DNA of 64,000 nucleotides from a phage. Positions 43,981 through 53,018 of the stretch are shown here, piece by piece. Position 1 is the stretch's first letter. Every line of letters starts with the position of its first letter. The position numbers were made by a program, and so were the translations under genes. The DNA is taken from sequence record OZ335964.1; one strand, 5' to 3'. A model generated the notes under the pieces. It saw only the letters and a list, made by a program, of their open reading frames with translations, was not told the DNA's origin and did not search any database.

Positions 43981-44319
43981 TTATTCTCCTTTCTTAAACA
44001 AATTGCGAAGCCAGTATACAAACGGGATTTCTTTAAACTTGAACTTGTCAATAGTTAATTCTTTAGTAGCAAGATGAATACCATAAGCATCATGTGTCAC
44101 GATATGCCATTTTCTATAGCCCAAATGTGAACAACCGTCTGAATCTAGGTTAATAAGAGTTTCTCGCTCACTAGGATTATTTTTCCACAATTTTGTAACC
44201 GGGTCGCACATAATTCGACCTAGCGTACCATGAATAATCTCACAACGGTAAAGTTTTCCAGCAGTGAGATAGGCGCACCCGTCATAGTCGGTATAAACAA
44301 ACACTTCTTTAACACTCAT
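43981..44319 (-). CDS. paralog family C protein (start at MSVKEV)
   Basis: ...YTDYDGCAYLTAGKLYRC...DSDGCSHLGYRKWHIV; preceded by promoter cassette and SD. Confidence 0.45.
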   Translation of the reverse strand: MSVKEVFVYTDYDGCAYLTAGKLYRCEIIHGTLGRIMCDPVTKLWKNNPSERETLINLDSDGCSHLGYRKWHIVTHDAYGIHLATKELTIDKFKFKEIPFVYWLRNLFKKGE

Positions 44320-44380
44320 TTTAATACTCCTTTGTTGTTTCGATGGGGGTATATTACTACCCCCGATCATGTGTGTCAAC
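44320..44380 (-). promoter_or_regulatory. early promoter-hairpin-leader cassette (PeSL-like)
   Basis: TTGACA - 9 nt - GGGGGUAguaauauaCCCCC hairpin - leader CAUCGAAACAACA - AAGGAGTATTAAA-ATG. Confidence 0.6.
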
Positions 44381-44640
44381 TACTTTTTCAAGAATTTTTT
44401 AATTGCGTTCCAAAGACCTTTATTCTCAGGTTGTTTTGGTTCTTCGATCAGCGTCCATGTTCGACCGTCTAAGTGTGCACAATTTTTAAGGCAAATAAAA
44501 ATCTGGTGTCCCTTATCATCACGGATATAACCACTATTCGCAAATCTTTCATGTGGTGTATATTCATACAGTGTATTTGGTGTAATATACTTGCGGTTAC
44601 TATAAGGTGTCATCACATACATCATGGTACTAACTCCCAA
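44380..44640 (-). CDS. paralog family C protein (86 aa)
   Basis: ...NTLYEYTPHERFANSGYIRDDKGHQIFICLKNCAHLDGRTWTLI. Confidence 0.45.
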   Translation of the reverse strand: MGVSTMMYVMTPYSNRKYITPNTLYEYTPHERFANSGYIRDDKGHQIFICLKNCAHLDGRTWTLIEEPKQPENKGLWNAIKKFLKK

Positions 44641-44816
44641 CGATCACCGCGAAGATGAGAACATCCACCATCAAGAAGGATCGTAATACGAAACCCCGCA
44701 TCATCTTCAATATACCCGATAGTCGGTGGATGTTCGTCGTCTCGTGCCGGGGTAAAATCATACATCTTTCCGGGCGTAATATCTTGTCCTTTATTGCTAT
44801 TGGTATAAACTTGCAT
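44622..44816 (-). CDS. paralog family C protein (64 aa)
   Basis: ...GKMYDFTPARDDEHPPTIGYIEDDAGFRITILLDGGCSHLRGDRWELV. Confidence 0.45.
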   Translation of the reverse strand: MQVYTNSNKGQDITPGKMYDFTPARDDEHPPTIGYIEDDAGFRITILLDGGCSHLRGDRWELVP

Positions 44817-44837: not shown

Positions 44838-45536
44838 CTAACCACGGGTATAGTGTTCCAGAACAACGGTCAGATGAATATATTCTAATAAATCTTTCCA
44901 AAAGTCAACATCTGGTTCTTCCGGCATACCGTTTTTCTTTGCCTCTTCACGCGCGAGTTTAACACGCTCGTAGAGATCTTTCAATTCTTCCCGCACATTA
45001 TCAAAGGTTCTTTCTCCTAACTTACACGCTAAAATAGAAGAACGTCGCGCGAGTGGGAATTGTAGATCACCTGTCTGATAGATTTCAAGTAGCTGATAAC
45101 CAACACGCAGAGCATGAGAAAGATCTTTCCAGTTACTGAAATACTTTTCAGATTTTGCTACCTGCTTTTTGAGATAACCAGACAAACCCCACATCCCAAC
45201 ATGATAGAATTTATCGCGATGTGTTCGGATGTATTCCCATTCTCTGGAGGATTCAATCAACATGTTACTAGGCGCGTGCACCATGTCAATAGCGCCAATA
45301 TCACCTTTACATGCCAGATTGATAAACCGTTTTAGACTGAACATATTAACGTCAATATCGTCTTTGGTGTTCTTGATACCTTGACCGCTAGTGCTTTGGT
45401 CATAGTGTTCTTTCATCGTTCCTAAGATAATTTCTTTCGCAGTCGGAACAAAGATACCACGATAATCTTTATCGGAATTTTCAGTATCAAGACCGTATAA
45501 GTGAGATCCGAAGACCATTTTAACCATTGTATGCAT
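44838..45536 (-). CDS. nucleotidyltransferase-fold protein (Pol-beta superfamily, minimal NTase motif)
   Basis: N-terminal FGSHLYGLDTENSDKDYRGIFV fits GS-x3-G-x5-SD-x-D; 232 aa. Confidence 0.5.
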   Translation of the reverse strand: MHTMVKMVFGSHLYGLDTENSDKDYRGIFVPTAKEIILGTMKEHYDQSTSGQGIKNTKDDIDVNMFSLKRFINLACKGDIGAIDMVHAPSNMLIESSREWEYIRTHRDKFYHVGMWGLSGYLKKQVAKSEKYFSNWKDLSHALRVGYQLLEIYQTGDLQFPLARRSSILACKLGERTFDNVREELKDLYERVKLAREEAKKNGMPEEPDVDFWKDLLEYIHLTVVLEHYTRG

Positions 45537-45578
45537 AATTAAACCCTCAGTTGATTAAGAGATTGCATCATATCATCA

Positions 45579-45612
45579 TAAAACGAAAAAGCCAACCCTT
45601 TTCGGATTGGCT
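45579..45612 (-). terminator. rho-independent terminator
   Basis: AGCCAAUCC-GAAAA-GGGUUGGCU followed by UUUUUCGUUUU on minus strand. Confidence 0.65.
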
Positions 45613-45622
45613 TGATGAAAAA

Positions 45623-46039
45623 TTAGAGAGATTCGGTAAAGGTGCGCGAAATAACATCACGTTGTTGGTCTGGAGTCAGACTATTGAATCTTACGGCATA
45701 TCCGCTAACGCGAATGGTTAGTTGCGGATACTTATCAGGATTAGCAACCGCATCAAGAAGAAGATCGCGACTCATCACATTGATATTCGCGTGCTGACCT
45801 CCTTCGACAACCGGAGCACCAGTATCTACAATAACAGGACGGAAGCTAGTTGTGTGCAGTGCCAGCGAATCGACGTCTTCTGCGGTGATCACATGGTCTT
45901 CTGCGAAAGTTTTACTAACAATTACTTTAGCGCCGATCAGTGCTTTCGGTTCGGATACCAGAATCATAGGCGCGAAATGTCCACCAATAATAGTACCTTT
46001 ATGCTCACCTTTCATGATTTGAATTGCTTTAAATTCCAT
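45623..46039 (-). CDS. autonomous glycyl radical cofactor (GrcA/YfiD-like)
   Basis: C-terminal [11 protein letters not shown]...[35 protein letters not shown] nearly identical to E. coli GrcA C-terminus (glycyl radical motif RVSGY); a T4 homologue (Y06I) is described in the literature. Confidence 0.88.
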
Positions 46040-52547: not shown

Positions 52548-53018
52548 TTACAGTTTGGTCGTCCACTCCAGGTCTAGATCTTCGACATACTCATGAGATC
52601 GGACAATCTCTAAATCGAACTCTAGGTCAGTGCCAAATTTACGCGCACCAACATCATAAGAAAGCGTGATATGCGGTACATATTCAGGATAATCCCACGT
52701 CGCGCCTAAAGCAGTTCCGATATCGTGTCTGAATTGCATGTAGTCGCTTTCAAATGCCAGCACAAGTGCATTAGTACCGGATTGAGTTTCAAACACTTTC
52801 AGATGACACAGAGAGCCTAAGAACTTTTCCCCTTCTTCTGGGATAAACGGAACATAGACACGAGAATATAAGATAGTGCTATGAAGTTTATCACGAGGAA
52901 CGGCATTAGGCAGATCGTAGAACTCCTGCAATTTTTCAATGCGGTCTAGTGTATCCTCAGTGAATTTAACCGCCGCATATGTACCTTTAACGGATTCTCG
53001 AAACGGGGTCATAATCAA
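52548..53018 (-). CDS. 57B: 2H phosphoesterase (gp57B/Acb1-like cyclic-nucleotide phosphodiesterase)
   Basis: 156 aa with two H-x-T/S-x motifs (LHSTILYS; PHITLSY); immediately downstream of 57A as T4 57B. Confidence 0.6.
   Translation of the reverse strand: MIMTPFRESVKGTYAAVKFTEDTLDRIEKLQEFYDLPNAVPRDKLHSTILYSRVYVPFIPEEGEKFLGSLCHLKVFETQSGTNALVLAFESDYMQFRHDIGTALGATWDYPEYVPHITLSYDVGARKFGTDLEFDLEIVRSHEYVEDLDLEWTTKL

Follow-up and report, generated by a model that had tools for sequence, protein, structure and literature searches.

Nucleotidyltransferases (NTases) of the RlaP family, which carries the full name 'RlaP, RNA repair pathway DNA polymerase beta family' in Pfam (PF10127), are encoded by bacteria as well as by phages, phage T4 (NrdC.11) among them, and the COG3541 nucleotidyltransferase domain was linked to the NrdC.11 orthologues in 2006 (PMC1524935). 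Here, we describe a family member from the phage sequence record OZ335964.1, a 232-amino acid protein encoded on the minus strand of a 64,000-nucleotide stretch of DNA (the window, i.e. the whole stretch that was analysed). The gene is very probably the Krischvirus (RB49-type) orthologue of T4 nrdC.11; it lacks an insert of about 100 amino acids that is present in nearly all of its close relatives and retains an intact active site. With a probability of roughly 0.55, the protein is an active, template-independent NTase of the RlaP family that adds nucleotides to RNA 3' ends in support of RNA repair.

Two Pseudomonas enzymes of this family, PfRlaP and PaRlaP, the genes of which lie between rtcB and rtcA, were characterized by Carruthers, Fatma and Huang in a preprint of December 2025 (PMC12776372). 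According to the same source, they add one or two nucleoside monophosphates to the 3'-OH of RNA, accept any NTP and also dATP, prefer Mn2+ or Co2+ as the metal, and are inactive on DNA, protein and 3'-phosphate ends, with E. coli proteins not serving as substrates. On a cleaved-tRNA mimic, the broken end is their preferred site and, with a tRNA from which one anticodon-loop nucleotide was missing, addition by RlaP before ligation partly restored aminoacylation; the RNAs labelled by PfRlaP in total RNA also include species of rRNA size and of full-length tRNA size (PMC12776372). The crystal structure of PfRlaP consists of an N-terminal NTase domain and a C-terminal helical domain, with the terminal helix packed back on the NTase domain, where it forms a three-helix bundle with two helices of that domain (PMC12776372). 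In the sequence similarity network of PF10127 presented in that work, T4 NrdC.11 belongs to cluster 5 and the assayed Pseudomonas enzymes to cluster 1a (PMC12776372).

In jumbo phages, the distribution of RlaP is reported to mirror that of RNA ligases, and Iyer et al. (2021) predicted that RlaP restores the nucleotides removed by RloC-type nucleases, before ligation (PMC7824862). The RNA-repair hypothesis for phage RlaP has, then, already been published, by Carruthers et al. (2025) and, as cited in later work, by Burroughs and Aravind (2016). Viable T4 derivatives with reduced genomes have lost, among other fragments, nrdC.11-mobD.3 (PMC9825161).

A Krischvirus member of the RlaP family

The gene and its active-site elements map as follows.

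44838-45536, minus strand: nrdC.11-type coding sequence, 232 amino acids, ATG start (open reading frame call)
45465-45509, minus strand: active-site motif G10-S11 ... D22-x-D24, GSHLYGLDTENSDKD (pattern scan and alignment)
45351-45362, minus strand: D59-D60-I61-D62, strand with the third catalytic carboxylate, D62 (alignments)

A GAGGG Shine-Dalgarno sequence, identified by eye, lies 7 nucleotides 5' of the ATG. Residues 9-25 of the open reading frame (ORF) read FGSHLYGLDTENSDKDY, and the NTase fold that the initial annotation proposed from an exact GS-x3-G-x5-SD-x-D signature is borne out: a scan of all six reading frames of the window yields this strict motif only once, 100 shuffles do not contain it, and both the Pfam and the PHROG profiles agree with it. 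A looser Pol-beta pattern occurs seven times in the window, so the motif alone is weak evidence and it is the profile matches that carry weight. The general Pol-beta pattern, hG[GS]-x9-13-Dh[DE]h, is represented by G10-S11, 10 intervening residues and D22-K-D24, and the third carboxylate, D62, is located on a predicted strand (residues 61-67).

The match to the RlaP family has a score of 53.7 bits (gathering cut-off 23; E = 3.1e-14) and is collinear, with residues 7-191 aligned to positions 24-198 of the 249-position model; PHROG 388, 'nucleotidyltransferase', is matched in two stretches (E = 1.8e-79). A search of the NCBIfam profiles with the 232-amino acid protein gave no matches, and the PADLOC defence profiles yielded nothing credible, the best being an insignificant CARF/HEPN match (E = 0.032). 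Nothing meaningful was obtained from the PDB with either the protein or the profile made from alignment A1 (haemoglobin at E = 0.19, SAMTOR/AGOG at E of at least 0.06); no RlaP structure was found in the PDB copy by sequence, profile or fold searches, which implies that the PfRlaP structure is not part of this copy. The protein is not an orphan but a member of a named family.

The DNA around the gene is 96-97% identical to the Krischvirus genomes (RB49, Phi1, GEC-3S, FL15), and the RB49 counterpart is nrdC.11 in RefSeq (RB49p098), annotated 'nucleotidyltransferase', with a product that differs from the window protein in two amino acids (about 99% identity). In a tblastn search, relatives were detected in 1620 phage records, 59 of them with at least 95% identity, and the inspected records of the latter set are Krischvirus or RB49-like phages; all the remaining records show less than 60% identity, typically in two pieces over about 984 nucleotides. 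The identity is 45% to T4 NrdC.11 and 41-49% to the long forms that were aligned. With T4 NrdC.11 and its T4-like orthologues (PHROG 388), the window protein shares the N-terminal blocks FGSHLYG..SD.D and NTKDDID as well as the C-terminal motifs DWKALSHALR and FW. The Pseudomonas RlaPs share the Pfam family, the succession of NTase domain, helical domain and terminal helix, and the three conserved catalytic acids, and the length of the window protein is similar to that of the 249-position Pfam model; however, their sequences are distant, as the window protein belongs to a different cluster of the network and matches the Pfam model no better than at E = 3e-14, and their genes lie in an rtcB-rtcA operon whereas the window gene is phage-encoded and not part of such an operon. 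The identity of the gene is thus already known: this is an annotated member of a named, recently characterized family.

Many NrdC.11 homologues in GenBank and UniRef are labelled 'thioredoxin' (P0019, P0022, P0026, P0032 and others of our set) and one is labelled 'HNH homing endonuclease', although all carry PF10127. We suspect that these labels were carried over from the gene name nrdC.11 or from a neighbouring gene.

Predicted structure and conserved residues

Two domains and a terminal helix are predicted.

45201-45536, minus strand: N-terminal Pol-beta NTase domain, residues 1 to about 112 (AlphaFold and fold matches)
44934-45191, minus strand: C-terminal helical domain (HEPN-like, or kanamycin nucleotidyltransferase type), residues 116-201 (AlphaFold)
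44847-44909, minus strand: C-terminal helix, residues 210-230 (AlphaFold)
45105-45131, minus strand: helix motif WKDLSHALR, residues 136-144 (alignments)

The AlphaFold model, built with an alignment of 13 sequences, has a mean predicted local distance difference test score (pLDDT) of 87.6 and a predicted template modelling score of 0.85. The NTase domain of the model includes strands at residues 2-9, 23-30, 44-48 and 61-67, plus helices, and the predicted helices at 116-201 and 210-230 complete the combination of NTase domain and helical domain with conserved cleft residues that is characteristic of RlaP. The helix at residues 210-230 may be the counterpart of the terminal helix that packs on the NTase domain of PfRlaP. 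In a Foldseek comparison with the PDB, the top match is HalB of the Hailong system (9dbh, 9dbj; E = 7.6e-5), followed by ANT(4'), LinB and AAD(9)/AadA; these and 3c18, the top fold matches, are all NTases, and the predicted model has the Pol-beta alpha/beta core. CD-NTase/cGAS enzymes were neither matched in PADLOC nor present among the top 50-60 fold matches. The likeness to HalB is one of fold only, with no detectable sequence homology. ANT(4') and the MNT-HEPN modules resemble the window protein in that a HEPN-like four-helix domain accompanies the NTase domain, either behind it in the chain or as a partner; they differ in that their targets are antibiotics or a separate HEPN toxin, which is AMPylated, whereas the helical domain of the window protein is fused to the NTase domain.

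The initial annotation called the protein minimal and suggested that a partner HEPN-like gene be sought. MNT-type minimal NTases are about 100-150 amino acids long. The description holds insofar as the insert of the T4-like relatives is missing, but not for what is a two-domain protein of 232 amino acids. The Pfam scan of the neighbouring genes detected no HEPN-like gene near the locus; in the model, the HEPN 'partner' seems to exist as the fused HEPN-like helical domain, in the style of kanamycin nucleotidyltransferase. No Rx4-6H motif of HEPN RNases was seen when the window protein was read by eye, the conserved motif being K137...H141...R144.

In the T4-like clade (alignment A1), the invariant residues include G10, S11, D22, D24, D59, D60, D62, W136, K137, S140, H141 and R144. 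A broader alignment of 15 PF10127 members combines T4-type and short-type proteins, canonical bacterial RlaPs, the products of Bacillaceae chromosomal genes, and proteins of mycobacteriophages and of Gordonia, Bacillus and Vibrio phages. Across this diverse set, which includes canonical RlaPs of tandem loci, G10, G15, D22, D24, K137 and R144 are present in all 15 sequences and S11 and S21 in 14, and the column of D62, read by eye, holds D or E in all 15. Because these residues are conserved across such diverse members, the active site and the family-wide Lys/Arg pair are considered intact, and a loss of the catalytic acids, which would have spoken against the NTase assignment, is not observed. 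Both the family membership and the intact two-metal active site (G10-S11, D22, D24, D62) are computed results.

Secondary loss of an alpha/beta insert

The feature that sets the protein apart from its relatives is a short loop.

45129-45146, minus strand: loop, residues about 131-136, the site at which relatives carry an alpha/beta insert of about 91-116 amino acids, absent here (alignments A1 and A2, T4-type model, tree)

Nearly all close homologues, T4 NrdC.11 (336 amino acids) and its group included, are 300-345 amino acids long and contain the insert, compared with 232 amino acids in the window protein. Among the matches listed, the only short full-length forms are the window protein and a metagenomic protein of 234 amino acids (P0002) that is 57% identical to it. 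In the alignment, about 100 residues are cleanly missing between the first two helices of the helical domain: there are 8 residues between the flanking columns in the window protein compared with 79-116 in the other members of the clade. The structure of the insert was examined by modelling P0079, a T4-type protein (82% identity with T4 NrdC.11; pLDDT 87.0), in which it forms a separate alpha/beta module that consists of a helix (136-148), strands at 154-158, 164-168, 184-191, 195-202 and 205-208, a further helix (171-177) and a long helix (213-235).

A neighbour-joining tree of 60 sequences (222 core columns), rooted on the Bacillaceae genes, places the insert-less proteins of Bacillaceae, Planctomycetes and Pyrinomonadaceae outside a large insert-bearing clade, and both short phage forms inside it. 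The window protein falls within the insert-bearing clade in 100 of 100 bootstrap replicates and within the crown group of this clade in 79 of 100, and the insert is present in all other sampled members of the clade, including all other T4-like copies examined. The short form is nested in the insert-bearing clade and, therefore, results from a secondary loss that restored the canonical core length; this loss explains the one-piece Pfam alignment of the window protein, as opposed to T4 NrdC.11, which matches only model positions 24-142.

Compared with RB49, the gene has 16 nucleotide differences, with 13 synonymous and two non-synonymous codon changes. Judging from these substitutions, the gene is under purifying selection and the loss of the insert has not killed it. 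On its contig, P0002 is preceded by genes for an endolysin, vs.8, a GrcA-like vs.6 and an inserted HNH homing endonuclease, in this order; given this synteny at 57% identity, the short form has been kept while the sequences diverged substantially. The loss of the approximately 100-amino acid insert in the Krischvirus lineage is a small new detail, of which no prior description was found in the literature searched. It makes Krischvirus a natural deletion variant in which the clade-specific insert is gone and selection is kept, and a comparison of the T4 and RB49 enzymes could reveal the contribution of the insert, for example, to substrate recognition. To the published RNA-repair hypothesis, this deletion variant is a modest addition.

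Proposed nucleotide addition to RNA 3' ends and alternative explanations

Under the scenario that we favour, the enzyme would add one or two untemplated nucleotides to the 3'-OH ends of RNA; during infection, it would put back the nucleotides that host ribotoxins (RloC-type anticodon nucleases, for instance) had removed from host tRNAs or other RNAs, after which the phage Pnkp and RNA ligase 1, whose genes lie elsewhere in the genome, could seal a functional RNA. That the protein is an active RlaP-family NTase is supported by the Pfam and PHROG 388 matches, the 45% identity to T4 NrdC.11, the conserved catalytic and helical residues and the confident two-domain model; by the inclusion of T4 NrdC.11 in the network of the family whose Pseudomonas members add one or two nucleotides (PMC12776372); and by the excess of synonymous changes and the retention of the short form in a second lineage. 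For a role in RNA repair speak the presence in RB49 of pseT (Pnkp) and rnlA, the reported parallel distribution of RlaPs and RNA ligases in jumbo phages, and the homologue in Vibrio phage 1.084.O that abuts a COG0617 gene. For the addition to RNA 3' ends and repair taken separately, we put the chances at about even on the strength of this analysis. If NrdC.11-type enzymes indeed replace the nucleotides that 'smart' anticodon nucleases, RloC among them, have excised, the classical tRNA-repair counter-defence of T4 Pnkp and Rnl1 would gain a third component, and it would become clear how phages could withstand ribotoxins against which religation alone fails.

Several observations weigh against this scenario. 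We infer the substrate, product and biological role from enzymes of a different subcluster, the characterized RlaPs being in cluster 1a and T4 NrdC.11 in cluster 5. There is no RNA ligase (RtcB or Rnl) or Pnkp beside the gene, so that the association from which RlaP takes its name is missing, and in RB49 pseT, rnlA and a second polynucleotide kinase-like gene are about 75 kb away from nrdC.11. RNA-repair neighbours are also absent from the mycobacteriophage, Gordonia phage and Bacillus phage homologues examined and from most of the bacterial relatives examined, and the sampled bacterial loci with relatives contain no RNA ligases, just tandem RlaP pairs or unrelated genes. The closest solved fold, HalB, is a protein-primed poly-dA synthase rather than an RNA-end enzyme; T4 nrdC.11 can be deleted in the laboratory (PMC9825161), so no phenotype supports any role; and the missing insert could have been the substrate-binding module.

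The same chemistry might serve an end other than repair, namely, RNA 3'-tailing that marks or stabilizes phage or host transcripts after cleavage by RegB or a host RNase, or that damages the 3' ends of host tRNAs. This use, which we consider rather unlikely, requires nothing beyond the activity invoked for repair and is consistent with the labelling of rRNA-sized and full-length tRNA-sized species by PfRlaP and, in this lineage, with the location of the gene four genes upstream of regB in one co-oriented block of early genes. The proximity to regB is, however, lineage-specific, given that regB and nrdC.11 are about 6 kb apart in T4. Cleavage of the RegB type is expected to leave phosphorylated 3' ends, as is typical of cyclizing RNases. 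Such ends are not used by RlaP (PMC12776372).

Following the best fold match, the enzyme could be imagined as an oligonucleotide or homopolymer synthase of the HalB kind, with short (deoxy)oligonucleotide products that keep a Hailong-type DNA-gated channel closed or act as a decoy; HalB is a component of bacterial defence that makes protein-primed poly-dA. At 12-14% identity and a template modelling score of about 0.45, with no chain of the PDB (HalB among them) matched at the sequence level and zero support from PADLOC, this appears improbable; Pfam assigns the protein to RlaP, and the RlaPs tested do not extend DNA and stop after one or two nucleotides. The gene for the HalA partner is not beside the window gene, and the flanking genes scanned include no Pfam family of membrane channels, the neighbours being otherwise identified. 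Even less probable is a version in which removal of the insert re-targeted the Krischvirus enzyme from the substrate of T4-type NrdC.11 to HalB-like untemplated oligonucleotides, which would counter a host guard system such as Hailong in the manner of decoys or of ligands that close a channel; if this were so, the insert-less NrdC.11 would be a phage-encoded counter-signal synthase, not an RNA repair enzyme. The leading idea of the initial annotation, an MNT-like nucleotidyltransferase acting on proteins, or an antitoxin mimic, by which a host HEPN toxin would be AMPylated and neutralized, is very improbable: the protein carries its HEPN-like domain in cis, an arrangement shared with kanamycin nucleotidyltransferase, rather than relying on a separate partner, there is no HEPN gene among the neighbours and no match to a defence or toxin-antitoxin profile, and E. 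coli proteins are not substrates of the tested RlaPs (PMC12776372). We give the least credence to a small-molecule NTase comparable to ANT(4'), LinB or AadA and acting on an antibiotic or metabolite; the fold matches are weaker than that of HalB and, with 10-15% identity, have in common just the generic combination of NTase and helical domains, the protein is assigned to RlaP by its sequence profile, and the activity would be of no evident use to a lytic phage. That the gene is a decaying remnant, inactivated by the loss of the insert, is suggested by the retention of the insert in every other member of the insert-bearing clade examined and by the dispensability of the T4 gene (PMC9825161), but this too is highly unlikely, considering that all catalytic and family-invariant residues are retained, non-synonymous changes relative to RB49 are few, the protein recurs at 95% identity or more in the 59 phage records, a second short form exists in a syntenic contig, the excision is clean and lies in a loop between two helices of a model that is still confident, and canonical RlaPs normally lack the insert. 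Taken as a whole, the initial interpretation was partly supported, in that a Pol-beta NTase had been correctly recognized.

Genomic neighbourhood

The gene belongs to a block on the minus strand with the order endolysin (Peptidase_M15_4), vs.8, a 41-amino acid ORF, vs.6, a hairpin and promoter-like region, nrdC.11, three small paralogous ORFs and regB.

45623-46039, minus strand: vs.6, directly upstream of the NTase gene, GrcA-like glycyl-radical domain (PF01228, E = 3.8e-15)
45589-45613, minus strand: terminator-like hairpin and T-run, 3' of vs.6, with a 10-bp stem AAGCCAATCCGAAAAGGGTTGGCTT followed by TTTCGTTTTA
45567-45595, minus strand: putative promoter-like site TTGGCT-17-TATGAT with extended TG, overlapping the hairpin (consensus scan, 9 of 12 matches)
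44622-44816, 44380-44640 and 43981-44319, minus strand: three tandem small ORFs of 64, 86 and 112 amino acids between nrdC.11 and regB, mutual paralogues
52548-53018, minus strand: Acb1, anti-CBASS cyclic-nucleotide phosphodiesterase, 156 amino acids (PF23474, E = 1.5e-51)

In the GEC-3S record, a terminator is annotated in the same gap between vs.6 and the NTase gene. The hairpin together with the promoter-like site just upstream suggests that the NTase gene begins its own transcription unit. Vs.6 of the window is 54% identical to T4 Vs.6 and is annotated in some records as an autonomous glycyl radical cofactor or pyruvate formate-lyase. The Pfam scan of the flanking genes revealed no HEPN protein, RNA ligase or kinase-phosphatase, and there are no tRNA genes in the window. 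The three small ORFs, which match no Pfam family, are similar to each other (blastp E-values of 1e-11 and 2e-4) and share a C-x-H-L ... W motif; their equivalence to vs.3-vs.5, the genes found in this slot in T4, was considered and rejected, there being zero similarity. The internal-protein genes of T4 that had been placed at this position are located elsewhere: in T4, regB and vs.6 are separated by vs.3-vs.5, and one finds ipII and ipIII on the far side of vs.8 and denV.

The window copy of nrdC.11 is situated between vs.6 and regB whereas that of T4 sits between nrdC.10 and mobD; in the window, there is neither a second RlaP paralogue nor a homologue of T4 NrdC.10. T4 NrdC.10 (L002 4126-5094) shows weak matches to AAA/novel-STAND NTPases, all below the Pfam thresholds, and is not an NTase. 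Homing endonuclease genes abut this NTase gene in two separate lineages (L002 2238-4011; L085 3951-5273): T4 mobD overlaps nrdC.11 by 17 nucleotides, and an HNH_3/NUMOD4 gene lies 21 nucleotides upstream in the P0002 contig. These endonucleases may be related to the different positions of the gene in T4 and RB49.

Among the bacterial loci with a relative, 14 of 77 carry two adjacent, co-oriented genes of the RlaP family (L005 6001-7727; L060 5728-8156; L061-L066; L068-L070; L072; L077; L082), typically a divergent copy, often extended at the N-terminus, followed by a canonical RlaP of 250 amino acids. This layout suggests that tandem bacterial RlaPs may work as a pair, in contrast to the single copy in the window. 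In Vibrio phage 1.084.O (L088 2089-4403), the long-form NrdC.11 homologue overlaps the end of a 446-amino acid COG0617 gene (CCA-adding enzyme/poly(A) polymerase); among the phage neighbourhoods examined, no other directly indicates tRNA or RNA 3'-end metabolism.

Given the presence of Acb1 in the window, the phage already possesses a dedicated enzyme for the degradation of nucleotide signals. The RB49 orthologue of Acb1 is still labelled '57B RNA ligase' in RefSeq.
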